From Amphiscolops sp. MND2022 (Eukaryota), in contig OZ076409.1 of assembly GCA_964187785.1 (NCBI GenBank), positions 65,660,001 to 65,724,000 of the forward strand: a stretch of DNA of 64,000 nt, read 5' to 3'. The notes beneath the pieces are model-generated. The model was not told the origin of the DNA. It did not search any database and saw nothing but the letters and a program-made list of their open reading frames with translations. The translations under genes were made by a program, and so were the position numbers. How positions within the stretch are numbered: the stretch's first letter is position 1; each line of letters opens with the position of its first letter. Of this stretch, positions 2,573 through 47,600 are shown piece by piece.

Positions 2573-4351
2573 TGTCGCAGGCTGCCGCCTGTGATGGCAA
2601 CAACTATACGACCTCGGGATACGGACAAGAAATTACCCCAGGTACATTACCCATTTATTAAACTCAAAACTGCAATTGCCAAGACTCGCTTTAACTATTT
2701 TAGTTTATTTATCCAAACTGAATATTAGTCTGTTAAGTACAATTTGGAATTGTCCAAATTGGGATGTTTTATGTTGCAAATGTGTTGAATACAATTACAG
2801 CAGAGCAATGTAATATAAAGCAACTGTAAGGCAGTATAGGAAACGTGTTCAAGTGATGCTAAGCGCTGATCCAAAAGCGTCACTTGAGCGCATTGTCTTA
2901 TCCAATCAGAGCGCTGTATTTGTTGTGCTATATTAGCTTTGTTGCTATCATGGCCTAATTAGGCCTATTTCCTAAATAACGCTTGCTGTACTGTATTACT
3001 TGGTCAAACGGCCGGTTCCGGCCATTTTGTACAAATAGTTAATTGACGTTGCTTTGATAGTAATAACCGGACCTATTATTTCAAATTCACTTTAGTCCAC
3101 TTGTTGATGCTATAATTATACTCCCCCTCTGCCTAAATGTGAGAAATGAGCATAATAATAATTGCAGTTGGAATGAAGCCTCTCCCCACCTTTTCCCAGT
3201 GCAAGACTGAAACCCCGGACATGGCCAGTTTCGGCCTCGTGAAAATAACTTGCACCAATTTCACTGCTGCGTTTGTTGATCATGATTTATTCAATTTGAT
3301 ACGTGAATTAGACGGCACATGGCAAGCCGCGTGGCAGCACGTGCTGTCTCAACACCTTGTAATAAGGAATGCAATGAACAGTGCATTGTTAACATTTTTG
3401 TTATTTGTATTGATGTTAAGTACGTTAGTTATTTGTTTGATGTTAACTCACGGTCGATGTAAGTTGGGCACGCCGCCTGTCACACCTATAACCACGTGAT
3501 GTTTGGAATAACATTTGACCTTACTAGGACGAATTCCTGAAAGTCTTTGAGGTGCTAACTATCTAACTGTATGTCGGTCCTCATGACCATTAAGGAATTT
3601 GTCGATTACAAATGGAATTTGATCACACTTGTAAGGGTATATATAGCAATGTTTCCTTGAGGTGATTATTAATTCCATACCGATTGTTCAGATCAGTTGA
3701 TTTGTTTCGCATTTATAGATTGCAAGACTAGATTACCAAATAAAATATTCAACCTTGAAATCTTGATGCCTACTACAAGGAAACAAAAGAAAGCTAGAAA
3801 GTCTAGAGGAATTGAGATGCTTTCTGACTTGGAGAACCTTGACATAATGCTAGGGGAAAACCACTTCAATAGAAATGAAAGGGACGGAAGTGTTAGTAGC
3901 AATTTCGGCAGAAGGCCTGGTAGTACCTCTGCAGATGAACTAGGAAATAATGGTGAAAACAGGCACTCAGCCACAAGGGACATTGATCCTGGTAATAATG
4001 CCGATTATGGTCGAAACTCAATTGGTGGCAACTCTAGTGCTGAGATTAACAAGTTGTCAAGTGAATTGAACTCTAGATTATCAAGAGAGTTAGATGATAT
4101 GATGTGTAGTGTCAATTCTCAGATCCAAAGGGCAATTAGTGATGCAATAAGCAACCAAGTACTCCCACAAATCCAATCCGCCCTTAGTGCCGGGTCAGGA
4201 CACATGACACAAAACAGATGGGACATTCCGTCCGAGAGACCGGAAATAAATTCCGAAGGACTGCAAAATACTAACCCCAAAGACAGTTCAACTAGCAAGC
4301 ATAACCATGACCATCAGAATGATGGTGGTATTAATTTAAATGCTTACGACA
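2573..4351 (+). repeat. 5' LTR of element A
   Basis: Direct repeat of 16917-18695, no differences seen by eye. TG...CA ends with a 5-bp inverted repeat. TATA-like TATATATA 3638-3645 and AATAAA 3739-3744. Confidence 0.96.
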
Positions 4352-5478
4352 TGGTGACAGGAGACAACGAATCTCCGAATCAAGTTCCTGAGTTTCTCAC
4401 AGGACGGATTCTATCGCGGAATCATCTTGACCAGTCCTATGAAGACATCAACCTTAACACGACGATCCCAGCACAAGAAAGACCCGCTCCGGTTGCCGAA
4501 TCTGATCCAATTACTAGACTGGCAGATGTCTTGACAAACATGCAGAATCGACCAACAGCCCAACAACTCACCATACGCCCGGTCAACTCAAATACCATGA
4601 CCTTTGACGGCAAAAGTGAGAAATTTGAACTGTTCGAAGATCTGTTTCATACTATGATCAAGATGCAGCCAGAAATGACTGAACAAATGAAGATTAACCA
4701 TTTCCACTCGCTTTTGAGGAAGAATGCTCTTCAGACGTTCAGAAATATCAACTCGACCAACCGACAGACTCTTGAAGACGTTTTGGTCATTTTCCGACGA
4801 AAATACGTCAAACCCGAGTCACAAGCGACTGCCAAGCACAAATGGCACCGCTTGGTCTTTGATCCCAACACGATGAAATTACCGGATTTCCTTGAAGAAT
4901 TGAATCAAGGGGCAGAAAAAGCATTCGGCGATCATGCACAAAAAATGATTGACAGCCTATTGTACGCAAAACTGCCTCCGAAACTCAAGCGATCAGTCAA
5001 CATGGCCAGATTAGAAAATGGCTCTTACGACGAAATAGTTGCTCATTTGGAGAGGGAACTAGAGCTTAACGCCCTTGAGGAGTCAGATGACCTACCCATG
5101 GCAACAATGACCTCCTCATCCTCCAAGACTAAAACCCCTCTGTCCACTAATCAAATGTCAGATATAACTTGCAACTACTGCAAGGAAAAGGGCCACATGG
5201 TCAAAGACTGTGAAAAACTCAAAAAGAAGAAAGAAAAAGATGCCCAACAAGGCAAATCGACGGAGAAGAAAACGTACCCTAAATGCGGGACTTGTGGCAA
5301 GAAAAATCATCCAGAGGAGCGATGTTGGCAGGGAGCAGGTGCTCACTTGAAACCCAAACGAACCAGACCTGAAGATTCTTCAGACACCGACAATGACTCC
5401 AAGGCACCCAAACCACACAACAAACCAACGTCCTCCAATACCCAATCCTCATCAAACAAAGATGAGTCAAAAAACTAA
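3766..5478 (+). CDS. gag: Gag of element A (570 aa; starts inside the LTR)
   Basis: MPTTRKQKKARK start homologous to element B MPSTRRQKAKARK; capsid-like core (FDGKSEKFELFEDLF); two CCHC knuckles CNYCKEKGHMVKDC and CGTCGKKNHPEERC. Confidence 0.93.
   Translation: MPTTRKQKKARKSRGIEMLSDLENLDIMLGENHFNRNERDGSVSSNFGRRPGSTSADELGNNGENRHSATRDIDPGNNADYGRNSIGGNSSAEINKLSSELNSRLSRELDDMMCSVNSQIQRAISDAISNQVLPQIQSALSAGSGHMTQNRWDIPSERPEINSEGLQNTNPKDSSTSKHNHDHQNDGGINLNAYDMVTGDNESPNQVPEFLTGRILSRNHLDQSYEDINLNTTIPAQERPAPVAESDPITRLADVLTNMQNRPTAQQLTIRPVNSNTMTFDGKSEKFELFEDLFHTMIKMQPEMTEQMKINHFHSLLRKNALQTFRNINSTNRQTLEDVLVIFRRKYVKPESQATAKHKWHRLVFDPNTMKLPDFLEELNQGAEKAFGDHAQKMIDSLLYAKLPPKLKRSVNMARLENGSYDEIVAHLERELELNALEESDDLPMATMTSSSSKTKTPLSTNQMSDITCNYCKEKGHMVKDCEKLKKKKEKDAQQGKSTEKKTYPKCGTCGKKNHPEERCWQGAGAHLKPKRTRPEDSSDTDNDSKAPKPHNKPTSSNTQSSSNKDESKN
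4352..4363 (+). other. Primer binding site of element A
   Basis: TGGTGACAGGAG immediately after the LTR CA; the identical 12-mer follows the 5' LTR in B and C. Confidence 0.9.
5469..5475 (+). promoter_or_regulatory. -1 ribosomal frameshift slippery site A AAA AAC (element A)
   Basis: Heptamer directly before the gag TAA. The -1 frame is open into pol (LTSPRLQ...) and homologous to B and C. Confidence 0.88.
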
Positions 5479-8400
5479 CTTCGCCACGACTCCAATACAA
5501 CCAACTAATATCCGTCCGTCAATACATCAGGTCGGATCCTCCGACGAAAACTTTCCATGAATACCAACATCAATTGATGGGTTACCCCTCTGTTGTCTGG
5601 CAGCAACAGATGGAAAAAGCTACCATTATCACCTATAATAATACCCATTTGCTCCAAAAACCAATTCCTGTATGGGACCCTGATTACACATCTGCTTTCA
5701 CTAGCCGATTCAGGCCCATTCCCTTGGTAGACGACTACAACCCTACCTACATAGATCCTGACTACGGACGAGATCCCTATTGGGATACCGAACTTTACAA
5801 CCAGGATTTGTTGCAATTCCAATACGTTATCGATGACATAGAACTCTATAACAGATCAGTCCACGACAATCCACCAATCACCCATAACAAGAAAACCAGA
5901 GCATTGATTGAAACATGGCAGATGAATGATGGTACAAGACATCCGGTGTTCCCAAACCCCTTGGGGACCGAAACCTCAGACAAACCAGAAGAAACAATAC
6001 CACAGTCACTACTTGATGAAAGTCAGTTCCAGAACATCCTCATCACTAGAGAAGGAGAACCAGACTGTATTCCTCTGTCCACCAGCATAAACTTGAAATG
6101 CAAAAAACGCATGCTGTATTTCCCTATGGACTTTGGGGAACTGACCATAGATGGACTTATTGACACTGGTGCTTTATCCAGTGCAATCCCTGAAATGGAC
6201 CTCCGGAAAATCAGGCTCCTATCGCCGCAATCAGTCATCCGGGAGGGTCCACCTCCGAATTTCCAGATAATGGTCGCAAATGGGCAACTAGAAACTCCAA
6301 AGAGTACGATAGAGCTCAAATTTGAAGTTGGTGACATAGAGTTCCATGAAATTTTCATAGTAATGGAACACTTGACAGGACCGATTATAGGACTCATGTT
6401 CCTACAGAGAAACCATACAGTTCTGGACATGAGGCAAGGAATACTGAACTTTCCATTCTTTTCGATGCAGCTCAAAACAGCTGATCACAAATACTCGAAT
6501 GTACTCGAACCAATTTTGAATCCTACCGAAATAACCATTCCGTCAAATGACAGAGTCCTAATTAGGACCAATTCCCTATTGTACCCTGAAAACACGGTCA
6601 CAGGGATTTTACAACCGAGCGACCTTCTCCATGAAGAAGGCGACATCACATTCTGTCCAGCCTTGGTCAGTTTGAATGATGGCAATATACAGATACAGGT
6701 AAACAATTTCACAGACCACCCTTACAAGCTCAAAAAGGGACTCCATATTGCCAGTTTCTCAGTCATGACGCCAGAACAGATGAAATACGTTAAACCGGTA
6801 GACCCAGCTTCAACCTGGCATTTGCTACAAAATGACCAAGAGCAGGCAGCCCATTACGTCAGTAGTCTCATCAAGACTAACAAGAATCCACAAAATACCG
6901 AAAACTACTGGTTCCCAACCCCAGAGAACCCAGGGAATCCGGAAGAACATACACCAATCCAAAAAAGGATACTCCGTGAATTACTAGCCCTACAGGAACT
7001 AGAATCACTTGATCCCACAAAGGACGAGGAATCTAGAACAAAATTCCTGGAAAACTTTGACTGGAAAGACTCCACATTGACACCTGATGAAAAAGAGAAA
7101 ATCGAACGATTACTAGTGGAGTTCCATGATATTTTTGCGAGACATAGATTCGACATAGGCATGAATGAGGAATTCAAAGTGAAGCTGACACCCAAAGATG
7201 ATTCCCCAGCCTATAGTCAGAGCCTCCCTGCACCGATAAACTTAAAGGAGGACATATTAGTTGAATTAGCCATGCTCCACAAATATGGCATAATAACTAC
7301 CTTACCGTTCTCGAAATACGCCAGCCCAATATTCGCACAAAAGAAGCCGAATGGGAAACTGAGACTTCTGGTTGACTTGAGAAAAATCAACAACCTAATC
7401 TCTGATGATTATATTAACAATAATCATCCAGTCAGTACCCTAGTCGATGCCGCCCAACACATGGCAGGCAAGAAACTCTTTTGCAAGTTAGACTGTTCAC
7501 AAGCGTATCATTGCCTTCCGATGGCTGACCAACGTTCAATCGAAATGTTGGCCTTTAACTTTGCAAGCCGCACATTTGCATATAGACGACTGGCACAAGG
7601 CCTTAATAGAGCACTGTCCGCATTCTCCAGCTTTATGAGAGAGTACCTTGACAAAGTCATAAAAGCGGACCAATGTGCACAGTATGTAGACGATATTGGC
7701 ATCGCAGCCAACGACGCCGATCACCTCATTGCTAACCTGAGAGCAACTTTCAAATGCATCCAGGAAGCAGGCCTTAAATTGACGATGCACAAGTGCCATT
7801 TTGGTGCCACAGAAATCGATTTCCTTGGCAGGACAATAACCGCACAAGGCGTCAAGCCCCAACGGCAGAATGTTCAGAATTTCCTAGAAAAAACCAAATT
7901 TCCGAAGTCGAAAAAGGCTCTACAGAGATATTTGGGTTTCTTGAACTACTACCGGAATTATGTCCCAAGACTGTCTGAACGCCTTGCTCCGTTCTACAAG
8001 ATGCTGAAGAGTGACGAAAAAGTCCTAGTGTCCAAAGAACTGGTTCAACAATTTGAGGAAATCAATCGAGCTCTGGACAAATGCTGCGACTTGGCCCTAC
8101 AACAACCCATCCCGAACAAGCAAATTGCCCTAATGACAGATGCAAGCTTTGGTGCTGCAGGATATGCAGTACTAATTGAAGATGACCCGAGTCAGAAATT
8201 CACGTCAATCCGCAAATCATATGCACCGGTCGCTTATGGTTCAAAAACCTTCACCCCAGCCCAGATAAAAATGTCGATTTATGCAAAGGAATTCCTCGCG
8301 ATTTATTTCGCATTCAAAGAATTTGGGCATATTTTCTGGGGAGCGCCGAAACCGGTCATAATCCTAACTGACAACAAAGCCGTAACGAGATTTTTCCAGA

Positions 8401-10682
8401 CGAAAATCGTACCCCCAGCCCTGTGGAATGCATGCGACTATGTAATTCAATTCAATTTTGTCATCGCGCACATCCCAGGAGCGCAAAATACGGCAGCGGA
8501 TTATTTATCCCGATTGGAAGCCGATCCGAAAGACAAATTAGTCATGAAAATCCGCGAAGATGTACAAACACTGCCAATAGAAATAAACGTCCAATCAGCC
8601 GGAGTCTCACAGGAAGAGCAAATCTTCTACACAAATGACGACGATGAGACTGAAGAACAATATTGGGCGAGGAAAGAAGCAATCAGGAAAAACCCTGTAA
8701 CTGAAGAACCTACTGTCACAATACAAACTCTATCTACTAACTTAGTCAAACAACAACCTGAAATACAGGTCCGATTGAGGAAAACGAACCAGATAATTAT
8801 TGAGCAATCCAAAGATACAGTACTGCAACAACTGAAAGCGAAGCTCCTTCATGAAGAGTACTCAGAAAACATACTGCAACAAGATGCTCGATACAGGCAT
8901 TACGCTAATAATCTGGAAAGAATTGTCATCAAGGAAGACATACTAACAAGGCAATATTTTGATGAAACTGGGAATATAAAATACCATCAAATTCTTCTCC
9001 CGCAACACTTGCTGCCAGAATTGCTTCAGTCCCTACACGGGACAGCCCACAAGCACCCAGGCATTTCAAAGATGCTGCAGGAGATCAGACAGAGATACTA
9101 TTATCCCAACATGGCGAAACATGTCAAAAAGTGGGTACAAGGGTGTGAACAATGTGCAAAGGACAAACGAGTCCCAAATGCAACAATCACGCCCGAACTA
9201 CTTAACTTGCCGGAATGGGACCTTGGACCCGAAGACGCCATGCAAATCGACTTATTGCCGAATCTTCCCCCAAGTGGAGGATACGAAAATGTTTTGACTG
9301 CAATTGATGTCTTCTCTCGATACTTGTTTGCTTATCCTCTTACGGACGCATCAGCGATCAATGTAGCTAAAGCAATCATTGATATTATGACCAAACATTC
9401 TTACCTACCGACGACGCTCATTACGGACAAGGGAACTGCCTTTACCTCCACGATCATTGCGGAAATTACACAGATTTTAGGCATTACCCTAAAATGTGCA
9501 ACGACCAAACACCCGCAAACTATCGGGAAGTTAGAGCGAACACATGCCTCATTGAAAACGAATTTGAAAATGGCATGTGGAGAATATCGCCGACAATGGC
9601 ATAAGTATTTGCCTTTAGCAGTTCTCAATCATAACACTAGTTATCATGCCAGTATCGGATGCGAACCGACAAGAGTGTTCCATGGGAGAATCCCATATAA
9701 CATCTTGGATCACAAACTTGGAATGAACCCAAATGAGCAAATCCATCCGACTACTGAATTCGCAGAAGAAATCCAGAACCGAACCAAACTCCTTATTGAC
9801 AAGACAAAGCAGAACATCATGCAGTCATATATCAAATATAAGGAGTATTACGACAGGAAAGCCAAAGCCGCCCCACTCAAAGAGGGCGATTACTGTTTTG
9901 TATTACAACCGAAAGCGGATCATCAAGGATCAAAAATTCCATTTAGGGATTATCGTTGGGTTGGACCGTTCATAGTCCAGAAGATTTTACCTAATGAGAA
10001 CTACATCATCCGCAGGCTTAATACAAATAAAACGCAGATTTTGCATCGAATTCGTCTCAAAAAGTTTATTCCGAATCAGCCACTTGAGGACAATTTCCGA
10101 GAACAGCGCCTACAGCCGGACGACGAAATAATCATTCCGCAAGACGACTTGTATGTAATAACGTGGGAAACAAACTTTGGTGAGCAACTAGCTACACGAG
10201 GCAACGAGCCGATTCCGGCTAGCCTGACGAATGGCGAGAGGCCGACTACGCCAGAAACGAATGTGAATGATGCAAACGAGAATGAAAGTGATTATGTAAT
10301 CACGACTGATTATCCGAATGACGTCAACGACGCTGTGCGCAGTAGAACCGAAAGAATGAGAAATGACGTCAGCAATGCTAATGAACCTAGTGAAGCAAAT
10401 GAGAATGAAAACTCTGATTGGCCGAATCCGGCCGTTTCCACAACGGATCAAGAAAAACCTGTGCCGAATACGGTTGAAAGACTAAAAGACGATGCGAATT
10501 TTCCAGAAAAGAATTTGATGAATGAAAACGATGCACAAAATTCTCCGAAAAAGGGGGATGATATTATCGTGCCCGAAATATCGCAAAATGATGCTAGAAA
10601 AGAGAGCTTGAGCCCCAGAGGAGGGAAATATAATCTCAGGCCTAATCCTAACCCAAACTACTCAGAAGACTTCAGATACTAG
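5475..10682 (+). CDS. pol: Pol of element A (protease, pseudo-dUTPase-like segment, RT, RNase H, integrase)
   Basis: LIDTGA protease motif; LRLLVDLRKIN and QYVDD RT motifs; LMTDAS RNase H; HHCC (H..H..CEQC), QIDLL/ITDKG/LERTH DDE and WVGPF integrase motifs; uninterrupted frame. Confidence 0.97.
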   Translation, partial: LTSPRLQYNQLISVRQYIRSDPPTKTFHEYQHQLMGYPSVVWQQQMEKATIITYNNTHLLQKPIPVWDPDYTSAFTSRFRPIPLVDDYNPTYIDPDYGRDPYWDTELYNQDLLQFQYVIDDIELYNRSVHDNPPITHNKKTRALIETWQMNDGTRHPVFPNPLGTETSDKPEETIPQSLLDESQFQNILITREGEPDCIPLSTSINLKCKKRMLYFPMDFGELTIDGLIDTGALSSAIPEMDLRKIRLLSPQSVIREGPPPNFQIMVANGQLETPKSTIELKFEVGDIEFHEIFIVMEHLTGPIIGLMFLQRNHTVLDMRQGILNFPFFSMQLKTADHKYSNVLEPILNPTEITIPSNDRVLIRTNSLLYPENTVTGILQPSDLLHEEGDITFCPALVSLNDGNIQIQVNNFTDHPYKLKKGLHIASFSVMTPEQMKYVKPVDPASTWHLLQNDQEQAAHYVSSLIKTNKNPQNTENYWFPTPENPGNPEEHTPIQKRILRELLALQELESLDPTKDEESRTKFLENFDWKDSTLTPDEKEKIERLLVEFHDIFARHRFDIGMNEEFKVKLTPKDDSPAYSQSLPAPINLKEDILVELAMLHKYGIITTLPFSKYASPIFAQKKPNGKLRLLVDLRKINNLISDDYINNNHPVSTLVDAAQHMAGKKLFCKLDCSQAYHCLPMADQRSIEMLAFNFASRTFAYRRLAQGLNRALSAFSSFMREYLDKVIKADQCAQYVDDIGIAANDADHLIANLRATFKCIQEAGLKLTMHKCHFGATEIDFLGRTITAQGVKPQRQNVQNFLEKTKFPKSKKALQRYLGFLNYYRNYVPRLSERLAPFYKMLKSDEKVLVSKELVQQFEEINRALDKCCDLALQQPIPNKQIALMTDASFGAAGYAVLIEDDPSQKFTSIRKSYAPVAYGSKTFTPAQIKMSIYAKEFLAIYFAFKEFGHIFWGAPKPVIILTDNKAVTRFFQTKIVPPALWNACDYVIQFNFVIAHIPGAQNTAADYLSRLEADPKDKLVMKIREDVQTLPIEINVQSAGVSQEEQIFYTNDDDETEEQYWARKEAIRKNPVTEEPTVTIQTLSTNLVKQQPEIQVRLRKTNQIIIEQSKDTVLQQLKAKLLHEEYSENILQQDARYRHYANNLERIVIKEDILTRQYFDETGNIKYHQILLPQHLLPELLQSLHGTAHKHPGISKMLQEIRQRYYYPNMAKHVKKWVQGCEQCAKDKRVPNATITPELLNLPEWDLGPEDAMQIDLLPNLPPSGGYENVLTAIDVFSRYLFAYPLTDASAINVAKAIIDIMTKHSYLPTTLITDKGTAFTSTIIAEITQILGITLKCATTKHPQTIGKLERTHASLKTNLKMACGEYRRQWHKYLPLAVLNHNTSYHASIGCEPTRVFHGRIPYNILDHKLGMNPNEQIHPTTEFAEEIQNRTKLLIDKTKQNIMQSYIKYKEYYDRKAKAAPLKEGDYCFVLQPKADHQGSKIPFRDYRWVGPFIVQKILPNENYIIRRLNTNKTQILHRIRLKKFIPNQPLEDNFREQRLQPDDEIIIPQDDLYVITWETNFGEQLATRGNEPIPASLTNGERPTTPETNVNDANENESDYVITTDYPNDVNDAVRSRTERMRNDVSNANEPSEANENENSDWPNPAVSTTDQEKPVPNTVERLKDDANFPEKNLMNENDAQNSPKKGDDIIVPEISQNDARKESLSPRGGKYNLRPNPNPNYSEDFRY

Positions 10683-10934: not shown

Positions 10935-13900
10935 TCAGGATTTAGTAGAAGAATCCTTACTAGGACTACCAACGACAGAGGATGACGATGATCGGGAAAC
11001 ACTCCTTCCCTTCTTCCGCTTCTTGCTACTGGGGATCCTTACTGCGGACTGATCTTCAACGGTACTACTCTCTGCCAAATTGACCTGCGTTGAAACCCTC
11101 TTCGGAGCTGAGTCGGCTTTGCGGTGAGTGGACAGGAGAGACTTATAGATTCTTGACCGACCGAAAGTGTCAGTATAAACCCAAGGATCGTACTCTGAGG
11201 AAAAGGCAGCACGTCCAAAGGACTCAGCTAGAGCAGAGAACTTGGCCAAGTGGGAGTCTTCACTGCTCCGTAAAACCGATCCGGCAACATTGGCCATGTA
11301 ACTCTGGCAAGGCAAGACCAGGTCCGTAAATCTGCTTTGCCCTCCTGCAGTGGTGACCTCTCCAAAGGTGACATCTGGGTAACTTGGGCTGACGGTGGTT
11401 GAACACAAACAACTCAATTTGAAGAGATATAACAAGTGTGGACGCTCATGAAGAAAATCAAGCCCCATCAGGAATTGAATCAAATCGGGTTCCACGCTAG
11501 TGATATCAAAGCTGGAACCGAAGGCAGTCTGGAGATGGTCCAGCAACTGAATATACTGGTCCCGACACTGAGACTCATTTGAATCTTCAACCCAAGATCG
11601 AAGTACAAAGGTGTTGTAGAGTACCTCGAAGTGCCGCAAAGCTACATCCGTGGGTCGCTTCAGCATTATATAAGGATCAAAGGCCGCCAATCCTTTTATG
11701 AGGTTGGTGCTGAAAGCTGTCTTCTCGAGTACTCCATTAATCAAAAACTGGATGTACTGCTGGCTGTCCTTGACGAAATCAGCTTTTACCTTATCGGCAG
11801 TGGCCAGGATGGCAGGACGTTCAGTTTTCTGGCCGAAATGGATTCCATCAGCCTTGACTCTGCTTGCCGTTGCCACTCGATTGCTCATCTTGAGACGAAT
11901 CAGGTATTCGTCTCCGGGGAGGAAAGTACCCTCACTGGTCTGGAACCGGAGGAGGAGAAACCAAGCGTTGGCAATTGGGGCAGTGTCCGGAGTATAGATT
12001 CGGGAGCAAAGCAGGCTGAGGAAGCGGCTAACTTCTCCGCATAGATAGAAGGAAGCATCCCGGCGGTATTGCAGATTCACTGTGAAGCTGGAAACGACTA
12101 AAAACAAAACTGATGTCCAACTCAAGACAGTTTTCTCTCACGAAAATTGTACAGGACTACACTCACAGTCATTGACGATCTTGCTGAAGAACTCCAGCTT
12201 AACGGTGAAGAATTCGTCACATATCAGTGACCACTCGAAACTTTGTGCCTGGAACAAACATATGGCCAATTGACGATTGGAAAACGGACCTTTAGTTTGT
12301 TTGACGGATAAGGACAACCCAAACCCTTAGGGGCTTAAGTGCAGATAAGGAAATCTAACCCTTCCTCTGGAGCCAGATCCTTCTTGCAGTGGTGCGTGAT
12401 TAGTGAGGTAGCGCACCACAGACTTCCACTCGGCAATGAGCTCTCGGCAAAGAATGGGCAGGGTTGGTACTTCTAGCTTGCAACTGGTTATGGCCTGAAA
12501 TACCAATTAAACCTGCGTTAGCATGATAGGGATATCTAAACGTCCTGACCCAGTTCCCGTTCCCTAGATGAAGATTCTATAAGAAAACTACTCACCTTGG
12601 TGAGCTCAGGACTTCTGATGACCCAGTCTTCCATGAGAGAACCGCCCAGAGAGACCATCAGAGCTTGCAGGACAGAGAAAAAATCTATTTTCCCAAAGAC
12701 GCTGTAGCTGGTTTTATGCATGAGGCAAGCTAGGGAGAAATGTTCAAATCGAGGACAGCTCTGAACCCCTTGGTTGTAATATCCAGACTCATCAATGGTT
12801 CTGGGTAGATCTGGATGACATCCCGAACAGGCGACTATTCCGGGCTTTGTGGACACAGCGGAGAGGAGGCGAGAAAGAGATCCCAGTTCGCCGGTAACAT
12901 CTGTAGTGAATCGGGAGCTACGACAGACGAACACCCTACAGAGTTCAGACCCCTTCCAGAACTTGATGGACATGTGTTTGAAAATTCCTACTGTTTCAAA
13001 TTCGAGGGAGAAGCACTGTTGGGAGTTGACTTGCTCCGCGATTTCATCAAGACAACAGATGAAGAAATGTTGGAAAATCGCCTAAAGACAGAAAGCACCT
13101 TTTGGACTAAATAGGGAAGAGGAAGACTTAGGAGAGACTGTCAATGAGTGAAGCGAAAAGTACTTACCGACAATCTTTCTTCACCCCAATCAAAATCGTT
13201 GAAACTGCTTTGATGGTTGGTGAACGATCCAATTCGGGACCACAGGTTGCGCAAGACCATCATATCGCCTTGGGTCCTGATGTAATCCCCAACCAGGCAG
13301 AGCTGAGTTTTGAGGCGAGCTTCAGGGGTGGCCATGGTAGTGGTGGAGCCTTTGACGAAGTCGTCATAAAAAGGAAAGCGCTCACCAATGTCCACTAATT
13401 CAACATTCCTGAATTTAGGCAGCTCTCTAGCTAACTCCACCTTGGTCAGGAGTTTCCCGTTCCCACCTCGGACTCGGAGTTGCGTCTTCCCTGTGACTGG
13501 ATCGACACTGCGGAGGTGTTCGTATCGCCAACGCTGGTCTCGCCGCAGATGACGTGCAGTCCGATGGTGCCTGAGGATTTCGTATGGCCCCTTTGACTTT
13601 ATGGAAAAATTCTTTTTACAAATGTGGCACCAGACCATGAGTGGATTATGAAGAGGATCTGCTGGGCCAGAAATGAAGGATCTCGTCCATCCAATTTTGC
13701 TAAAGAATTCCTCCCGCATAGGGACCCCACGTCTGGAGAGGGCCTTGCTTCCTTTCTTCTTTTTAGTCCCGGAGGATCCAGCGCTGGGTGCGGCTAGAGC
13801 TTGGTTCCTAACCTCAAGCAACGTATCATCTTGGCTACTGGACTCTGGGGCATCAATCTCAACATCCTGTGATATGTCTTGACTGGGAGTTTGCGGTTCA

Positions 13901-15159
13901 GGAGCGCCTTGACCTTGTGTGACCTTCTTGAAGGACTTGGTTATAAGATCCATTTCCGTTGCGCTGTCAGTCTCCCCATAATAGGAGGACTCTCCTGTCA
14001 TTTCAGTCTCAGTTGATCCAACATCTCTGTCCCCCAGAGTGGCTTCCCTTTCGGTGTCACTTCCGCTGGAACCTCCCATGGCTGCAGGTCCAGGAGTCTG
14101 AGCTCGTCTACCCGAGTAGAAATGTGCAGTCCTGGATGGAGCAATGGCTGGCCTGCCTCGAACCGCATCAATAACCATTTTTTCCATGGTTGAGAAGGAC
14201 CGTCCTAGAGTCTCATCGGTAAGGACTCTCAACAAGTGATATACTTGCGGCTCTGTGAAGGTGACGGTGGATTGGCCTACGGGGAACCTCGAGGATGGCG
14301 ACTCATCGAAATACTCCTTGAGAATTGCCCGACTCCTTCCTGAGAGGTGTGGTGGTTCTTTCTGAGTTGCGCCTTGCCCGGACGACGGCCCACTGGTACC
14401 TGGAACGTGAGGGTCAGGCCCAGTTTCGTCCCCTCCATCTGTTCCAGAGGCGTGAGAGAAAGGATGACTTCCATATAAAGCTACTGGAGCTATCACGCTG
14501 GACTGGTCGGTTGCCCCCTCATCTCCGCTGGGCTCTGTGAGGTATCGAACTCTTACTTCCCCACCGGGGAGGGGTGGAGCGTCTCCTACCGAGGAAGCTG
14601 CTTCCGTGTCCTGCTGCAGGGTTGGGCTATCTCCAGTGGTGTTGGCTGAAAGATCAATATCCACAAGTTCAACTAATTGGGATCCGGGTGTCCCGACTAC
14701 TCGAAAGGCTGACTCTAGAGCAGAAAGGTCAGCACTTGGGGTCTCCCCCACATTATCAGAAAGTGGGGTGCTCGCTCTTCTAGGCTCAGTGATGGGCGTA
14801 ATGACAGGATCCTTTGGGGTATCAAGATTGACTTCTGAGAATTGGCCTCTTTGCTCTGTCTTCTCTTGCGGAAGGCTTGATGTTTGCGCTCCCTCCAACT
14901 GACGTACCATATTGTCTGCATATGTAGTAACATCTGGGTCACTATCGGCGTTATGGGAAGAAGTGGCTTCGTCAATTCGTTGGCCGTGTGATTCTTGGGA
15001 CGTAGCTGGATGCTGGACTTGCTCAGTCTGTTCAGACAAGGGGTTGCTTGTCGAAACGCTGTCAGAGGGGTTAGCTGGTGTATTCACAACTTCAGTTGTT
15101 TGGTTCTCTAAACGAAAAGAGATAAAATTTGGCGGTATGCTTCCTCGAAAAGAATCCAT
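10935..15159 (-). CDS. Antisense spliced gene of element A: C2H2 zinc-finger, hAT-transposase-like protein (~1285 aa)
   Basis: Exons 15159-13168, 13081-12596, 12494-12360, 12248-12167, 12097-10935, joined by GT-AG introns (86, 101, 111, 69 nt), give 3858 nt in one frame, homologous along its length to the B and C genes. Possible alternative first exon 15323-15308 spliced to 15107. Product identity is inference. Confidence 0.85.
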
Positions 15160-15329
15160 ATTACCGCGTTAGAAATCTTCCGGAAGTATCTTAGACTTGA
15201 ACAAAACGTGTTATCACGTGCCTATTAGTGGAAACAGGAAGCGCTGTACGAACGAAATTTAGCCCTGATCAAGCTAAGCTAGTTCAACATGTGAAAACCA
15301 GACCAACCTGTACTCGAAGACATGCTTCT

Positions 15330-16222
15330 CCAGTATCGTTAGTCCAAAGTAGAAGAATGAGGAACAACGAAGGGACTGTGTGATTGAGCCAATCTCGGCT
15401 GGGGAAGGAAGGAACCAGAGATTCTCTGAGAGGGAGATGCCACTCGTGATGAGAGGAAAGGACGTCGTAATAGCAAAGTGTAACGAATATGCAAATGTGT
15501 TGAATTTGAATGGAGACAAATGGAAGTTAGATGGAATTGAAAATGTAACAATCAGATAGGATCGGAGAGTTGGAGTTCGTGGCTGAAGATTTACCAGACT
15601 AATATTATTCGATTATCTACATATTTAAAACTGTACACGGAGTCTGCCAGCGAAATGTACAGAAAATTCCTCGTTATTTATAACTTCGTTAGTTGAGTGG
15701 CCGATTACGGCCTTTTACCCTACTTACCTTTACCGTTTTGTTCCGTTGCCTTTATTACCCTTAGTTAGAAATCGCCATTTTAGAATAGTCAAAATTATTA
15801 TTTTTCGCCATTTTATTTATTAATTTTTCATTTTATCAACGGGTAATTCTGATTGGCTAACGCCATGTTGAGAAAGAGCTACGACGAGCGCAGTTAATTA
15901 CCTTCAAGCGACCTGTTAATTACCCACTTGAAAATAGTGAAGTTGGTTTTGATGACTCGAGTGTTATTCACACCTCTCCAAGCGGTGTAGTAGATGGGGG
16001 GTAAACATTGGATTATCAAAGGCAGCCAACTAATTATGGAATTCCATTCAAGAACGTTTATGTCGGATTGGGAGATTCGACTGAGGAATTCTACCGCCAC
16101 AACGAATTGCCGGGAAAAGACCGAACTCGGCTAATACCCTAAGTTTGATAAATTCATTCAATCTCATATTTCATCGACAAACAGTTGACTTGCCTAGACT
16201 CAAAATTGCAAAGAAATACATA
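15330..16222. promoter_or_regulatory. Putative internal bidirectional promoter region of element A
   Basis: Non-coding gap between divergent genes. TTGGAGTTCGTGGCT (15570-15584) and GGAGTCTGCCAGCGA (15639-15653) are conserved with element B at identical 54-nt spacing. Reverse CCAAT box (ATTGGCTAA) near 15853. Confidence 0.55.
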
Positions 16223-17005
16223 ATGAGCAAATTTAACCTCTCAAGGAAATTATTTGATCTTGAAGGTTGCGACTCAGATGAATCTACTGATTCAGTAATC
16301 TACATCTCTAGCGACGAAGAAGAGTCCTCATACTGGGAATCGGACTGTTCTACCGACACGGAACAATTAATCGCCCGCATAGAGAAAGAGGTTACGTCGA
16401 GCCCAATGCTGATCGCAGGACGAATTATGACGGTGGACACGACGGAAAATGATATGGTGGCTGGACCAAGCACGTCAAAGACGGACACTGAGATGACACC
16501 TAAACTGGATCACAGGTATTTCGACATAGACAGGTGCTACGCCCCCCCGAAGAAGGCCGGAAAATCAAAAATCGAGATTTGTAGTACGATTTTGCCAGTT
16601 TTGGAGTCGCCCCTATCTCCCCCGGATCACGAAAAGGGCCCAAGCAAAGACACCCCTTTGGTCCAATCAACTAGTGGGAGCTTCCGTGCCTCATATCATA
16701 TTCAGAACTCGAGGCCCTACGACGATATAAGCAGACAACGGTGTACTAGTTGCATGGTCTGCGGGAGAGCAGTAGATGAAATCAAAGAGGAAAAAATCAA
16801 GTGGTATATGGACAGATCGACCCCCAGAGGAGAGCCTGAGTACATCACCAAATTGAGGCGGGAAGCGTACGTGAACGGTCTTAACGCCGGCAGCTTACTT
16901 TTCATTGCACCCGCAGTGTCGCAGGCTGCCGCCTGTGATGGCAACAACTATACGACCTCGGGATACGGACAAGAAATTACCCCAGGTACATTACCCATTT
17001 ATTAA
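16223..17005 (+). CDS. Accessory sense ORF of element A (260 aa; acidic SIM-like N-terminus, CxxCxxC motif), ends inside the 3' LTR
   Basis: Homologous to B 52894-53730 (CTSCMVCG/CTDCLICG, VSQAAACDGN/VSQASACDGN); ATG context aaaattgcaaagaaa...ATG conserved with B. Confidence 0.8.
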   Translation: MSKFNLSRKLFDLEGCDSDESTDSVIYISSDEEESSYWESDCSTDTEQLIARIEKEVTSSPMLIAGRIMTVDTTENDMVAGPSTSKTDTEMTPKLDHRYFDIDRCYAPPKKAGKSKIEICSTILPVLESPLSPPDHEKGPSKDTPLVQSTSGSFRASYHIQNSRPYDDISRQRCTSCMVCGRAVDEIKEEKIKWYMDRSTPRGEPEYITKLRREAYVNGLNAGSLLFIAPAVSQAAACDGNNYTTSGYGQEITPGTLPIY

Positions 17006-18695
17006 ACTCAAAACTGCAATTGCCAAGACTCGCTTTAACTATTTTAGTTTATTTATCCAAACTGAATATTAGTCTGTTAAGTACAATTTGGAATTGTCCA
17101 AATTGGGATGTTTTATGTTGCAAATGTGTTGAATACAATTACAGCAGAGCAATGTAATATAAAGCAACTGTAAGGCAGTATAGGAAACGTGTTCAAGTGA
17201 TGCTAAGCGCTGATCCAAAAGCGTCACTTGAGCGCATTGTCTTATCCAATCAGAGCGCTGTATTTGTTGTGCTATATTAGCTTTGTTGCTATCATGGCCT
17301 AATTAGGCCTATTTCCTAAATAACGCTTGCTGTACTGTATTACTTGGTCAAACGGCCGGTTCCGGCCATTTTGTACAAATAGTTAATTGACGTTGCTTTG
17401 ATAGTAATAACCGGACCTATTATTTCAAATTCACTTTAGTCCACTTGTTGATGCTATAATTATACTCCCCCTCTGCCTAAATGTGAGAAATGAGCATAAT
17501 AATAATTGCAGTTGGAATGAAGCCTCTCCCCACCTTTTCCCAGTGCAAGACTGAAACCCCGGACATGGCCAGTTTCGGCCTCGTGAAAATAACTTGCACC
17601 AATTTCACTGCTGCGTTTGTTGATCATGATTTATTCAATTTGATACGTGAATTAGACGGCACATGGCAAGCCGCGTGGCAGCACGTGCTGTCTCAACACC
17701 TTGTAATAAGGAATGCAATGAACAGTGCATTGTTAACATTTTTGTTATTTGTATTGATGTTAAGTACGTTAGTTATTTGTTTGATGTTAACTCACGGTCG
17801 ATGTAAGTTGGGCACGCCGCCTGTCACACCTATAACCACGTGATGTTTGGAATAACATTTGACCTTACTAGGACGAATTCCTGAAAGTCTTTGAGGTGCT
17901 AACTATCTAACTGTATGTCGGTCCTCATGACCATTAAGGAATTTGTCGATTACAAATGGAATTTGATCACACTTGTAAGGGTATATATAGCAATGTTTCC
18001 TTGAGGTGATTATTAATTCCATACCGATTGTTCAGATCAGTTGATTTGTTTCGCATTTATAGATTGCAAGACTAGATTACCAAATAAAATATTCAACCTT
18101 GAAATCTTGATGCCTACTACAAGGAAACAAAAGAAAGCTAGAAAGTCTAGAGGAATTGAGATGCTTTCTGACTTGGAGAACCTTGACATAATGCTAGGGG
18201 AAAACCACTTCAATAGAAATGAAAGGGACGGAAGTGTTAGTAGCAATTTCGGCAGAAGGCCTGGTAGTACCTCTGCAGATGAACTAGGAAATAATGGTGA
18301 AAACAGGCACTCAGCCACAAGGGACATTGATCCTGGTAATAATGCCGATTATGGTCGAAACTCAATTGGTGGCAACTCTAGTGCTGAGATTAACAAGTTG
18401 TCAAGTGAATTGAACTCTAGATTATCAAGAGAGTTAGATGATATGATGTGTAGTGTCAATTCTCAGATCCAAAGGGCAATTAGTGATGCAATAAGCAACC
18501 AAGTACTCCCACAAATCCAATCCGCCCTTAGTGCCGGGTCAGGACACATGACACAAAACAGATGGGACATTCCGTCCGAGAGACCGGAAATAAATTCCGA
18601 AGGACTGCAAAATACTAACCCCAAAGACAGTTCAACTAGCAAGCATAACCATGACCATCAGAATGATGGTGGTATTAATTTAAATGCTTACGACA
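16917..18695 (+). repeat. 3' LTR of element A (contains truncated gag copy 18110-18730)
   Basis: Direct repeat of 2573-4351 followed by TSD GCTAC. Confidence 0.96.
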
Positions 18696-27957: not shown

Positions 27958-28192
27958 CCAGAAATTTGAATTACTAGTCCCCTCTTTATTTTGACTATTG
28001 GTCCATGAGGACATTCATTTTTTACTTGGGACTTTCTGACTTACTTTGTTACTCGAAATAATTATGTACAATAAAGAAGACTTAGTGGCGAATAATACAA
28101 AGCCACGCCCAAACAAAACAACAAACAGATGAAATAAATATAAAGCAGTTTACAACAAGTACAGTCTAGAAACAAATGTACTCTTTGTACAT

Positions 28193-28898
28193 TTAGGATT
28201 TAGAAGTTCCGGGAGCGTTCACATCACTGGACTTTCCGGCTTCAGTTTCACTAGCTACCCGAAAGCCAACTTTCTTGCCTTTACCCGGGGACAGCTTACG
28301 TTGTTTCCCCCCTTCTTTAGACGAGGAATTGGAAGCGGACTCGATGTCAGGACGGACACTCTTGCCCAGAGCTTTGTAAACTGCGATTAAGGTTTTATGC
28401 AAATTAGCTTTGCCGAAACTGTCTACGTGCGACCAAGGGTCTCCTGGGACGTTGCCAATACTGAATCGGAATTCCAGATCTTTGAATGTACCCAAGGAAG
28501 CTTCTGTAGTGCACACAGCCACTGAATTTGCCACATTAGCTAGGTAAGACTGTGCAGGCATGATCACATCGAAAAGTCTACTTCGGGGATCATTGCAATC
28601 AACTCCAGGGAATTTGATGGCTGGGAGCTCTGGCAACTTAGAAGTCAGGCACAGACAACTCAACTGGAAGATGTAGAACAGATGTTTCCGCAACTTCAAT
28701 TCAGGCATACCAATCAGAAAGGCTACCATGTCGGTGAAGACCTCTGGGGTATCCTTGACTCCAGAGTTGGCTTGACGGAAGTACTCCACGAAATCGACGT
28801 ACTCGTCTCGGGCATCGGTCTCTGGGGAATTCTCTAACCAGCCTCGCAAACTAAAGGATCGGTACAGAGCGGAGAAACAATATGTGGCTTGCTCAAGC
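28193..28898 (-). pseudogene. Duplicated 3' fragment of the B antisense gene (retains the ancestral C-terminus ...PGTSKS)
   Basis: Near-identical to 31245-31949; truncated at the duplication junction. Confidence 0.85.
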
Positions 28899-28899
28899 T

Positions 28900-31244: not shown

Positions 31245-34200
31245 TTAGGATTTAGAAGTTCCGGGAGCGTTCACATCACTGGACTTTGCGGCTTCAGTTT
31301 CACTAGCTACCCGAAAGCCAACTTTCTTGCCTTTACCCGGGGACAGCTTACGTTGTTTCCCCCTTCTTTAGACGAGGAATTGGAAGCGGACTCGATGTCA
31401 GGACGGACACTCTTGCCCAGAGCTTTGTAAACTGCGATTAAGGTTTTATGCAAATTAGCTTTGCCGAAACTGTCTACGTGCGACCAAAGGTCTCCTGGGA
31501 CGTTGCCAATACTGAATCGGAATTCCAGATCTTTGAATGTACCCAAGGAAGCTTCTGCAGTGCACACAGCCACTGAATTTGCCACATTAGCTAGGTAAGA
31601 CTGTGCAGGCATGATCACATCGAAAAGTCTACTTCGGGGATCATTGCAATCAACTCCAGGGAATTTGATGGCTGGGAGCTCTGGCAACTTAGAAGTCAGG
31701 CACAGACAACTCAACTGGAAGATGTAGAACAGATGTTTCCGCAACTTCAATTCAGGCATACCAATCAGAAAGGCTACCATGTCGGTGAAGACCTCTGGGG
31801 TATCCTTGACTCCAGAGTTGGCTTGACGGAAGTACTCCACGAAATCGACGTACTCGTCTCGGGCATCGGCCTCTGGGGAATTCTCTAACCAGCCTCGCAA
31901 ACTAAAGGATCGGTACAGAGCGGAGAAACAATATGTGGCTTGCTCAAGCGGCAGACTCAGGAGGGCTACTGGATCGAATCTGCCCAGGCCTCTTACGATA
32001 CCAGCATTCAGGCTAATGTCGGCAAGGAAGACTTTCAAAAGATGGACGAGGTAACCTCGGGCCTTGGTGGCGAAATCGTCCCGAATGGCCTCAGCTGCTG
32101 TTTCCGTCTCTTCAGGTGTCAGTTGCTTCTCACTATAAATTCTCTTGACGCGAGCATGGCATGCGGCATCCAAATTTTCTTTGAGCTTCAAGCGACTCAA
32201 GAAATCTCGATTAGACAGTTGTCGCCAATTCTGTCCTTGCAAATCGCCCAGCGACTTCCAGTCCAGGATATCAGGCACGTGTCTGGGAAGTAGTGCTCGA
32301 CCTGCCAACTTGCGGATGAAAGTATGGAACTCTCGGAAGGTGTAGAAGCCACTATCCCTTCGCTGTGCAAACTGACTCTCGAAGCTCTTGGTGTCTGGAA
32401 AACAAAACATTACCATCCTGAAGGGTCCCTATGACACCATTAGACCTAACGTGTCAATCTACTATATCTCGCATGAGCCTCAAATAGTGGTAAGAGAAAC
32501 TGAGACCATGAGGTCCGTGGACAGGAGGAAAACCAATATACTAACAATCGCGGACAATTCGTGCGAAGAACTCCAGCTTGATGGTGAAGAAATCATCAGC
32601 TATGATTTCCCACTCGAGGCTTTGGGGCTTGCTTTTGACCCCCTGGTGGACCTGTGGTGGTGCAATCTTCGTCAAATGCTGGTGCACAGACTTCCAGTTC
32701 GCAATCAGTTCCGAACATATGGCTGGTACAGCGGCAATTTCCAGGTGATAGGTAGACATCGCCTACAATCAACATGTTCATTGGAGGCAATTCAAAGCTG
32801 GACCTACAGTCTTACGGACAGTGACCTTACCTTAACGAATTCTGGCATTAGGGCGGCCCATGGCTGTCCACCGCAACCGTCCAAGAAAGTAACCAGAAAC
32901 TTCAACTGAGAGAAGAAACTGATGGTGCCAAACACGCTGCCCCATCGTTCGTGCATCAGGTCCGGCAGACAAAGTGCATCAAATCGAAAAGGGTACTCAA
33001 TCCCTTTTTGGAAGAGGCAAGAACGTTCAAGAAGAGGAATCACCTCTGCAGGACACCCAGACACGCTCACAATCTGAGGTTGTGTTGATAGGACGGACAA
33101 GAGACGGGAAAGTACCAACAGGAAACCAGCAGCAGGTTCTGAAGCAGTCCGATATCGTAGCAAACGGACGACATTAAGGGATTTGCCCTTCCAGAATCGG
33201 ATCGAAACAAAGCTGTAGGTGCCTCGCATTTCAAACTCCAGAGAGTACTGACCCGTGACACTGACTTGGTACGCGATGTCAGCGATACCACAGAGGAAGA
33301 TGTGATGAAAGATCGTCTAAAACAAAATTAACTAGGATGAAAATGCATCGAGGCTACGTTAGGGCTAAAGGACCCTGAGACTAGAAGTCGCCAATACTTA
33401 CTGTCAGTTTGGAGGAGCCCCAATCGTAAGGAGAGAACAGACTCTGATGGTTGGTTACAGTGCCAATCTGTGACCATAACGACTCAAGAACGTTTAGATC
33501 TCCACAACGAGGAGCGAAGAGAGCAACCATAGAGATTTGGACGCACAGTCTGATCTCCTCCTGCCCAGCGATGGAGCCCAGGCAGGCCATATGATCCTCG
33601 TAGAAGGGGTTGCTGCTGCCAGTTTCAACCAAGGGAACTTGCATGAAGAAGGGCTTCTCTTTCTCAAGTTCTAAGGGAGTCAACAATTGGCCCTTCTTCC
33701 CTCTGACTTCGTGCACAATCCGGCCAGTCACCTTGTCTTTCTTCCTTAAGTGTTCGTATCTCCAGCGCTGATCTTTGCGGAAATGCGACTCACACTGGAA
33801 ATGGCGGACGATCTCCCGAGCTCCTTTTGAAAAAATGGAAACGTTCGTCTTGCATATTTGGCAGTAGAACTTATGTTTATTATGCTCTGGGTCGAGGGGG
33901 CCGGCGACGAATGTGCGAGTCCACTGGATTCCTTTGAAATAGGCCTCTTTCATTATTTTGCCTGTGCGTCCAGGAAGCCGACGACGTTTGGGAGGTGGAC
34001 TTGAGGCAGAAGCTTGGTCAGTGGTCAATGTGGCTAAGGGCTCATAGTCGGTTGAGCAGAATCCTGGACTAGGGACTTGTTGTGCAGATGATGGTCCAGG
34101 TGTTGAAGTCGAACTTTGATCTGGAGGGCTTGGAGGGGGATTGATGTTCAGATCCTTGCCAGTTCTTTGCGAATTGATGACAAACTCATCTTCCGAACTG

Positions 34201-35234
34201 AGGGCTCCGCTAGTGTACCCCTCAGTCCCAACGTCACTGTCTTCCGCACCTGATCCAAGGCTGCCGCTCTGCTTACGGAAGATCTTGATTCGCTGTTTCC
34301 CGGATCCTTGAGGAGTACCTTGGGAGCGAATTCCCACCCGGATCGCTTCTTCCAGTATGTTTTTCATCTGGTGTAGGGAAGAAGTAATGGTTTCTGTGGA
34401 GACGGCACGCAAGATGGAATGAACTTGCCCCTGATTGAAGGCCACAGTCGCATGGCCTACCGGGAGGATGCACGGGTTGGTCTCATTGAAATGCTGATTT
34501 ATGAGCGTTCGAGCAGAGGAAGATAGAGGCCTGGTGGGACTGAAGAGCTTCGGGGAAGATATGCTTGGTAACTCAGCCGAGGTTGATGGCTTAGCATTCT
34601 CATGGGTTTCGGTCCCAGCGGAGCTTAACGCATCCAGTGCAATCAAGAACGGAGGTTCCTTGACGGTCTCAGCACCTGAACTATCAAGCAGTTCTTCAGC
34701 GTCGCTGGTATCTGTTTGGAAGTAATCCGCCTTGGTGACGGAAAATCCAGCCTCACTGACGGCATCATTGCCCCGCTCAATCTCAGTCTCAGGAGACTCC
34801 TTGTCTTGTGACCCAGTCGTGACCTGGGGAATTGGCTCCGACTCGGAAGCCTTCTCTGTATTGGACTCAGGTGCATGGCTTACGATGGCAGATGTAGTGG
34901 GTGGCAAGAAAGAGATGACTAGTCCAGTATCCTGACAACCTAGATTCTGCAACTGACGCTCAATGTATGCTGAGATACTCTCATCGGTGGAAGCGCTGGA
35001 AGTTGGACCAGTCTTAGATGAGCTGTCTTTTGGCGGATCAGGCTGCTTGGACTCCGCGTCCTTTATGGCAGTGGCGGTCTGGTCGTCGACTGTTTCTTCA
35101 GGCTGTTGTGGAACTTCTTCTTCTGTTAAAGTCCCAGTAGCGGTAGCGGGAATGATTTCGTTGTGCTCTTCGGACGACATGTCTAAATAGAAAGAGATAA
35201 AATCAAGCGGAGAACTTCCTGAAAAAGAGTCCAT
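31245..35234 (-). CDS. Antisense spliced gene of element B (~1200 aa, zinc-finger/hAT-transposase-like; late frameshift near 31360)
   Basis: Exons 35234(or ATG 35180)-33402, 33316-32831, 32762-32546, 32394-stop; GT-AG introns of 85, 68, 151 nt. Exon 2 is 486 nt, as in A; exon 3 is 217 nt, equal to A exons 3+4 (135+82). Confidence 0.85.
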
Positions 35235-44665: not shown

Positions 44666-47600
44666 TCACTTGACATGATGATGTATGGAAGGATCAATGT
44701 CTTTCTTCGACTTCTTCTTTGGAGTCGTTTTACTACCACCAGCTTGCACGTTAGACTTCTTCGTCTTCTCGACCTGCTTCCCATCAGTACTCTTTTCACC
44801 AACTTTACTTCCACCACTTTTCCCTTTTCCACTAACAGAACTGGAACTACTCTGCACAACGGAACTACTACGAGACCCCTGCTCTGCCCGAGATAAACGA
44901 TTGACTCGATTACACTCCGTATAATGCTCATCACTGGATTGACGTCGCTTTGCCAAAAATTCTTTATACAGCTCGCAGAAAGATGCAATAAACGAGTCCA
45001 CACCGGCATCGCACAAATCTTTGCATACGTTAAAATCAGAGCCAATATAAAATAGCCCAGCTTCAGAAACAGCATCACGCATTAGGCCCATGGATGACTC
45101 AGTAAATAACGACTGCGGAGAATAACCGTCGCTCAAAACATACGATTGAACAACTCTGCAACACAGAAGAACACTTCCTTCAGCCTGTTTACAACTCGAC
45201 AGATCAAGAGTAAACGGAGGACTAACACGGTTGGGCTCACCGACAAGCAGACAACACAACTTGAAGACACGAAGTACATGTCGTCGTGACTGGAACCCAA
45301 AATCATCCAGCAAGTAGCGGCGAATGTCCGTGATAGAACTGGCAGAGCGCTCCAATCGACTATGCTGCCTGCGTTTCTCGATCACGTACGCACTATACTC
45401 ATCCACAGCAGCATTGCATTCTTCTCGAGATAAAGCGCCACACCTCACAAGACCATCACACAGCTCAGAAAACAAATCAAACGCACACTTATCGTCACCT
45501 TCTAACATCAGTTCAGGGCAGAAACTGCACAGACCCTTCGAAACAATGGAACGAGTGCTGGCACTCTCCACTAACAGAGTGACGAGGCGATCGATAAATT
45601 CTCTGCAGCGACCACGAAACTTTGGCATCTCGCTTGCTTTCGACGACAAAAGAGACTTCCCATAATCACAGTGAGCCAAGAACTCATCCATAGGTGCAAC
45701 AGGGAAACTTGCCGCCTTTTCCACGTCCATATATGCATCCCAATCGTGGATAGCTGGAAGACTTGATAACTGGCGCGTCTTCATCAACAAGCAGTATACG
45801 AAATTGCATAATTCACCATAGCCATGGAATGCATAATCGCTGCGGCTCTGTCTCAACTTCGGCAAATGAATATGGAAAGTATCCAGCATCAATTGCAACA
45901 GCCCAAAACGATACGGCACCAGTCCGTCCGAGATCACAGTTGAATCCATACCTCTCAACTAAACAACAACACAAAATAACTAAGTAGACGGAAAACAACA
46001 GATGACCAACGAGACGACCGTGAAGAACCCCCCGAAAAAAAAAAAGAAAAGAAAAAAAAAGAAAAAAAAATCATGCAACAAACTCACACTGTCGGCCTGA
46101 TCTTTCACATGAGGCAATCCGGTACACCGAATGAACAGGCGAATTGAAGGCCACAGGTCCACCAAATCAGTCAGAACCTCACGAAGATCCTGGAAGGCAA
46201 CGGAACCTTGACGAATGGCCTTGCGCAACAACACCTTGCCATCCGTCCAGTCCTCGTACACGGCGCTCTTTAGCCGTAAAATGACATAGTCCACCAAACT
46301 TGTCACCTCTACCATCCCGAAAACATCCTGATGTGCCTGACGCACACACTGTAAGAACACCTCCTCGGAAAACTGTTGATGCATAACAAGTCGTTTCCCA
46401 TCAGTACGATTGTCCTCTATCACTCGAAGAAGCACCGGACTAGCACCGCTGACACAAAAGGGAAGTCGCGCATTTTGCACACTATGGACGAACTGTGCCA
46501 AAGGAACCAACTCGGATTTGGGCATAGGCTGGTCCAAAACTTCCTGACCAATGCAGATTTTCCGCAGAGCATTATCCAACCAGCACACAACAAAGCATCG
46601 TTCCACATCCGCGTCTTTCTCATAGAACAGTGCATATTCATTACGCGTCCCGACTGCACTGAGAACCAAACGCAACACCCGAGGAGCAAGGCCACGACAC
46701 AGCAAGGACTGAAACAATATACAAATACCATGACTACAAAACCACACTACTACTACCCCCCCCTCCCGAAGAGAAAAAAAAAGAACAAAAAAAAACAAAA
46801 AAAAGGAAAAAGAGGGAACACGACACAGACAAAGCTCATGAACCCAAAGACCACAAAAATATGTAATACCCCTACTTACCACCGTCTCAGCACGACTCCA
46901 ATTCAGCTGATATTCGGGCGCCCTCTCACCCAAAGAAGCTCGGAAACACGCCCATAAACGTCGCAGCAACGTGAAATCGCCGCCACTCCGGAGCCACTCA
47001 CAGACGGCCGAGATCATGGTCATAAATGGGACCTTTGAATCAACTTGGGCATGTTTGGGCACCAAATCTTCTGGAAAGGGAAACCCCTCTGCCAAGTCCA
47101 CAAAAGGTTGAGCTTTGTATTCCGCAATCTGGGCGGCAGTCAGTTCCATAGGCTCCAACCATCTATTGTATACGGGCAACCCTGAATGGACTCTGTAGCG
47201 CACGTCACGAAACCAGTGCCCATCAGACGCGAAGTGACGTTTAAACTCGCCAGATCCTTGTGCCTTCATCCGCACATCTCGATTGCACACTCGACAAAAG
47301 AAGGACGTAGGCTCCCCGCACTTAGAGCCACTGACAAAGTTGGGATATGCGGGATGCAAAGATAGCATGCGTCTCTTCAAATGTTTGCGATTCCCATAAG
47401 TTCGCACTCGCCGCTGGCAGCGATCTCCAATCTTCTTCGACAACTTCGTGAAACCTGCAAACGACAACACAACCATCTATAAATATGACACACGATATTG
47501 CGACCCCAAAACCCCAACCACACCTAAACAACCCCCTATCAACTATGACATACTAACGGACCTGTCTCGATACTTTGTACTGCCCGAGTCTCCACCTCAG

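Follow-up and report, generated by a model that had tools for sequence, protein, structure and literature searches.

An antisense gene in Ty3/Gypsy retrotransposons of Amphiscolops sp. that is probably a disarmed hAT-type accessory factor

Antisense accessory genes and domesticated hAT proteins

Antisense genes located between pol and the 3' LTR and conserved across copies are known from the plant retrotransposons Retand, Grande and RIRE2, whose aORFs (TRP28, PF04195) are described as having their own promoter and as encoding a proposed nuclear regulator (PMC7264820; PMC11963269). The former records no similarity of these aORFs to other transposable elements (TEs), gives their origin as unknown and sets aside a nested-transposon origin because no such similarity was seen (PMC7264820). 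The gene described here shares position, orientation and conservation with the plant aORFs; it differs from them in having five predicted exons, a recognisable full-length hAT-type architecture and no match to TRP28 (PF04195) at E ≤ 1 or at E ≤ 0.1. A possible functional analogue is VANC of the VANDAL DNA transposons, with which a plant DNA transposon encodes an accessory factor serving its own family; VANC is presented as MAIN-related (PMC13547354). Further related literature comprises PMC5408684, PMC6431247 and PMC10368747.

Reuse of the hAT scaffold outside transposition is known from the host-domesticated proteins DREF/ZBED1, FAM200, ZBED5, GTF2IRD2, EPM2AIP1 and ZNF862, and families of these types are the named Atlas neighbours. 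ZBED1 and DREF bind palindromic promoter motifs (PMC7471704). In contrast to these proteins, the domesticating host would here be a multi-copy retrotransposon, and the gene travels with the element. Both antisense accessory genes and domesticated hAT proteins are thus known kinds, whereas an origin of a class I gene from a class II element is unusual; searches of mainly open-access literature turned up no LTR element with a hAT-derived gene, although an entry in a TE library such as Repbase could exist.

The antisense gene and the elements that carry it

The window, i.e. the whole stretch of 64,000 nucleotides analysed (positions 65660001-65724000 of contig C1 in the 1.07-Gb source assembly G000), contains three complete Ty3/Gypsy LTR retrotransposons, A, B and C (Table 1). 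All hallmarks are present: LTR pairs with TG...CA ends and 99.7-100% identity, 5-bp target site duplications (TSDs), a PBS-like site (TGGTGACAG directly after the 5' LTR of A) and domain matches in the order protease, RT, RNase H, integrase. A tRNA gene search found none. Element C was inserted into the predicted internal promoter region of B, between the two accessory ORFs of the latter.

Table 1. Coordinates of the features found in the window
Feature	Position	Strand	Remarks
Element A, 5' LTR	2573..4351	+	1,779 bp, TG...CA, TSD GCTAC
Element A, gag	3673..5475	+	Weak DUF1759 and zf-CCHC matches
Element A, pol	5466..10679	+	Protease, dUTPase-like, RT, RNase H, integrase; Ty3/Gypsy order
Antisense gene A, exon 5	10935..12097	-	Predicted helical insertion/C-terminal part, aligns to Hermes 368-566
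Antisense gene A, exon 4	12167..12248	-	82 nt; followed by a phase-1 intron precisely absent from element C
Antisense gene A, exon 3	12360..12494	-	45 codons; putative insertion domain, placed by position
Antisense gene A, exon 2	12596..13081	-	Predicted RNase H-like core and start of insertion domain, conserved Trp (EDW)
Antisense gene A, exon 1	13168..15159	-	N-terminus, finger, helical region positionally equivalent to the Hermes DNA-binding/dimer part
Element A, non-coding gap	15160..16084	.	0.9 kb between two divergent ORFs; predicted internal promoter
Element A, second accessory ORF	16085..17002	+	Acidic, Cys pair motif, enters 3' LTR
Element A, 3' LTR	16917..18695	+	100% identity to its 5' LTR
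Element B	~20293-55149		TSD TATAG
Antisense gene B	31310..35234	-	Exon 1 35234-33402, exon 2 from 33316, last exon ~32395-31310
Element C	35860-52284		TSD ATTAT; nested within B
Antisense gene C	44669..47476	-	Finger exon to 46880, exon 46708-46088, last exon from ~45955; gene without mapped 5' end

Several other features of these elements were observed. Second accessory ORFs in sense orientation enter the 3' LTR also in B (52858-53727) and C (49004-50011); those of A and B seem homologous, with an acidic N-terminus, a CxxCxxC motif and weak zf-C2H2_12 and zf_PCFS4 matches (E 0.05-0.09), and that of C has no obvious kinship to them. The gag frame starts inside the LTR in all three elements, 125-225 codons ahead of the PBS, so that each LTR bears a 5' fragment of gag (3673-4351, 18017-18695, 37819-38200 and 54594-55149). 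The dUTPase-like segment between protease and RT was matched in A (E 0.21) and B (22802-26551, E 6e-4), with no match in C. Element B has a tandem duplication of 3,052 bp (25848-28905 and 28900-31957, 99.7%) comprising the pol end and part of the last antisense exon. Outside the LTR elements (506-1441, 57417-57945 and 58544-59007) there are a repeat family with a 150-bp period and inverted repeats, possibly transposon remains.

All 13 peptide motifs quoted in the preliminary description were recovered on the minus strand of A, B and C, in the order it had given. In element A the zinc finger lies at 13632 and is followed by FSLEFET (13012-12992), SIKFW (12970-12956), LIKGLAAFDP (11702-11673) and HLLYLFKLSCLC (11438-11403), with the stop at 10935. 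Four predicted GT-AG introns of 86, 101, 111 and 69 nt account for the change of frame between motifs, and the five predicted exons sum to 3,858 nt encoding 1,285 amino acids with a single terminal stop. Of the boundaries 10935 and 13720 originally assigned to the gene, the stop stands and the start does not, as the frame opens 1.4 kb further upstream; the start is most likely Met 15159 (MDSF...), with its counterpart in B at 35234, both proteins opening with MDSFxGSxPxxFISFxL, after which A has 469 residues rich in S, T, P, D, E and G. Exon 1 thus begins with a low-complexity N-terminus of ~470 amino acids and has a basic cluster at 13764, and exon 5 has an additional helical tail and a basic cluster at 11024.

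The antisense gene is under purifying selection. All eight splice dinucleotides are kept in 8/8 aligned copies, among which the exons are 61-82% and the introns 32-61% identical. Comparison of A with seven relatives gave pN of 0.07-0.19 and pS of 0.62-0.87, i.e. near saturation at synonymous sites, and dN/dS in the unsaturated comparisons (7 of 20) was 0.036-0.064 (0.02-0.03 for pol); for the gene of C, dN/dS was 0.05-0.16 (5/16 comparisons). Such low pN at near-saturated synonymous sites, together with the C-x2-C-x16-H-x5-H spacing kept in 36 of 38 matches, argues against a chance frame. The last exon is stop-free in all 40 matches of 99-100% identity in the source assembly; across 30 of these, the distinct substitutions comprise 46 synonymous, 36 non-synonymous and 1 stop change plus 23 in introns, and there is a single intronic indel.

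The gene is likely spliced. Element C reads through the site of a phase-1 intron that is present in 9/9 scorable C-clade relatives (16 were examined, 6 of them not scorable) and, equivalently placed, in A; a precise loss of this kind is the outcome expected from recombination with a reverse-transcribed spliced transcript and is thus an indirect sign of expression. Homologues that are longer or lack introns did not turn up in a search over 925-2,640 aa, which is weak evidence, and two loci with 723-aa frames were rejected as intronless homologues from one full sequence and one frame list. At one locus (L116) exons 1-2 are doubled in tandem (757-2050 and 3026-4388).

Predicted fold and catalytic positions

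The predicted structure of the antisense protein has the domain order of the Hermes transposase, namely zinc finger, helical region, RNase H core, helical insertion and C-terminal part, and is collinear with it (PDB 8edg, 8sjd, 2bw3) over Hermes residues 33-265 and 368-566. The core is predicted in exon 2, with FSLEFET as β1, SIKFW as β2 and IVACSG as β4; the large helical insertion and the C-terminal part follow. The finger, proposed from three elements (13629-13550 in A), is a conserved, invariant C2H2 finger and aligns to the BED region of Hermes, with no zf-BED match. Differences from Hermes and other hAT transposases are the finger spacing, the disordered N-terminus, the extra helical tail, the missing catalytic motifs and the location in an LTR element with 5-bp TSDs, apparently not between terminal inverted repeats.

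In Pfam scans, exons, representatives and alignments were without any hAT or zf-BED match, including Dimer_Tnp_hAT (PF05699); of 12 hAT frames used as controls, 10 matched. PDB sequence-profile searches with the protein were empty, hhalign against 12 hAT frames of the source assembly (mostly Ac-type) was negative, and Foldseek with the last exon alone gave nothing significant. No donor was found, and DUF4371 and zf-C17orf113 had no match in the source assembly, where the controls were silent too. Inverted repeats of at least 40 nt flanking the antisense gene are absent, the mobile unit being bounded by LTRs and TSDs. Genuine hAT transposase frames that retain TRW and ERxFS are numerous in the source assembly, several being 597-697 aa long (L081-L100).

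According to PMC4763223, hAT enzymes require DDE and CxxH; the Hermes numbering was set from the alignment and from K585/R586/R588 given there. At the column of the first Asp, assigned by strand position, Glu occupies 36 of 41 rows across families, with A/V/I in 5 and never Asp (Glu in 68/70 rows in a separate count). The end of strand 4 is Gly in 80/88 with no conserved Asp, the second catalytic site is not acidic, and the column of Hermes E572 (column 236, register +336) holds L/Y/F and is acidic in 0/50. Hermes 266-268 of CxxH correspond to model positions 319-321, where the columns are R/F/acid with an invariant Phe and no conserved His, and an ERxFS-like motif was found in none of 51 representatives (under 62% identity), nor in exon 5 of A. 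A Trp stands where Hermes W319 (TRW) is expected in 84/86, in a tentative register, preceded by E-D/E and not by T-R. The missing DDE, CxxH and ERxFS residues lead us to reject an active transposase and place the protein outside the active hAT enzymes, from one of which it most likely derives. The original proposal of a hAT-derived fold lacking the cutting residues is thus supported, and we consider it very probable that the protein is hAT-derived and catalytically dead.

Shared descent with the integrase and candidate function

Of 40 loci hand-picked to cover the families, 36 have the integrase core downstream and in opposite orientation, and 3 more have the tail of pol placed likewise; the remaining locus (L112) is a lone last exon, and pol is on the same strand in 0/40. 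For 31 of 43 sequences, those in which integrase and last exon each gave a long match in a single frame, the tree distances of the two correlate at 0.91, a value reached in none of 2,000 permutations. The trees have 11 of 28 splits in common with two well-supported conflicts, an agreement that fits one old capture followed by mostly vertical inheritance with some recombination. Selection, splice conservation and this co-phylogeny rule out a chance antisense ORF or a decaying nested insertion. The antisense gene (tree length 12.6) diverges about five times faster than the integrase (2.4).

Candidate matches at first look number 6,779-7,408 in the source assembly and are not copy numbers. Among database relatives, of which those checked come from ENA, the last exon has 945 representatives at E ≤ 0.001, with details taken from the best 150 of 945, and 162 relatives are near its length. 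Two members, P0246 and P0184, have best matches of only 32% and 31% in the source assembly, and the family may therefore extend to another genome. Some matches in G000 are spaced by 14.3 and 14.0 kb (C5: 67770022/67784367; C6: 27809380/27823722; C13: 16515366/16529327/16543286), and a spacing of one internal region plus one LTR suggests head-to-tail tandem elements with common LTRs.

The non-coding gap of A contains conserved clade-specific motifs at 15177, 15229, 15261, 15570, 15639 and 15804, which occur in 13-19 of 26 A/B-clade regions and in 0/16 of the C clade, shuffled sets containing them no more than 0.1 times each; the C clade has a gap motif of its own (13/16 regions). This contrast is partly kinship because the motifs were chosen for being shared; they persist, however, although synonymous sites are saturated. 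The motif at 15177 is a 10-bp palindrome, CTTCCGGAAG, which we take to be ETS/STAT-like; in both A and B it precedes the ATG by 17-18 nt. No repeated motif array was found in promoter or LTR regions.

We consider it probable that these Ty3/Gypsy elements carry, antisense to pol, a conserved disarmed hAT-type gene for a nuclear DNA-binding accessory factor of the element itself, and its action as a DNA-binding regulator of its own element is, to our mind, equally probable. An ancestral element would have gained a hAT-type transposase gene as DNA, the source being either a nested transposon or a transposon-derived host gene. The antisense orientation suggests capture as DNA; it preserves the introns through retrotransposition, since the genomic RNA that is packaged represents the opposite strand and is unspliced at these sites. 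The divergent internal promoter would drive the gene, and the protein would bind the clade-specific motifs in the promoter or LTR through the finger and retained transposon-end-binding surfaces, and host machinery, recruited by the long N-terminus with its acidic, disordered sequence, would keep the element transcribed or unsilenced, a role likened to that of host-domesticated DREF/ZBED proteins acting on genes. Given the invariant finger, the basic clusters, the acidic disordered arm and the conserved motifs nearby, we favour a regulator of the DREF/ZBED kind that acts on how its own element is transcribed or silenced.

The isolated finger has its best matches in the TUT1/TUT4 fingers, so that a protein of the same origin could act on RNA, its U1/matrin-like finger and empty RNase H cleft binding small-RNA complexes or the RNA of the element, whether to suppress silencing or to serve RNA export or packaging; this is unlikely, as fingers with H-x5-H spacing occur also in Buster/Tip100-type hAT proteins (Atlas families), selection covers the whole transposase scaffold and not the finger alone, and the gene has conserved clade-specific DNA motifs next to it. 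Less likely still is an integration cofactor that bridges or tethers LTR ends or the integrase complex to chromatin; the β1 Glu and the Trp at the W319-like place might then confer a residual single-metal nuclease activity. Transposases are built for holding DNA ends and both residues are widely kept, but the substitutions of the Glu fall in divergent families, the second and third acids are lost, a separately promoted antisense gene stands outside the Gag-Pol polyprotein, and the elements retain an intact integrase and 5-bp TSDs. The least likely of all is descent from a different DDE superfamily that has a helical insertion (Mutator, P, Kolobok), or from an unrelated RNase H-like protein; the missing hAT profile matches and the missing CxxH are in its favour, and Hermes would top the scores only because few such structures are solved and few eukaryotic transposases are in the PDB, the structure set compared.

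Beyond the DNA-binding regulator favoured here, a fuller account, which we hold tentatively and as somewhat less than probable, would be that an LTR lineage once, long ago, domesticated a whole hAT transposase as a family-specific transcription or anti-silencing factor that co-evolved with clade-specific internal-promoter motifs and was essential to genome-wide expansion. Where the antisense accessory genes of LTR retrotransposons come from and what they do become directly testable here, given the full transposase architecture, its conservation across deeply diverged, recently active families and the clade-specific candidate sites. Genes of this kind are missed when TEs are annotated with Pfam. 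The domestication of transposases, so far known from host genomes, would extend to a transposon as the host and, if this is true, a class I element runs on a disarmed class II enzyme.
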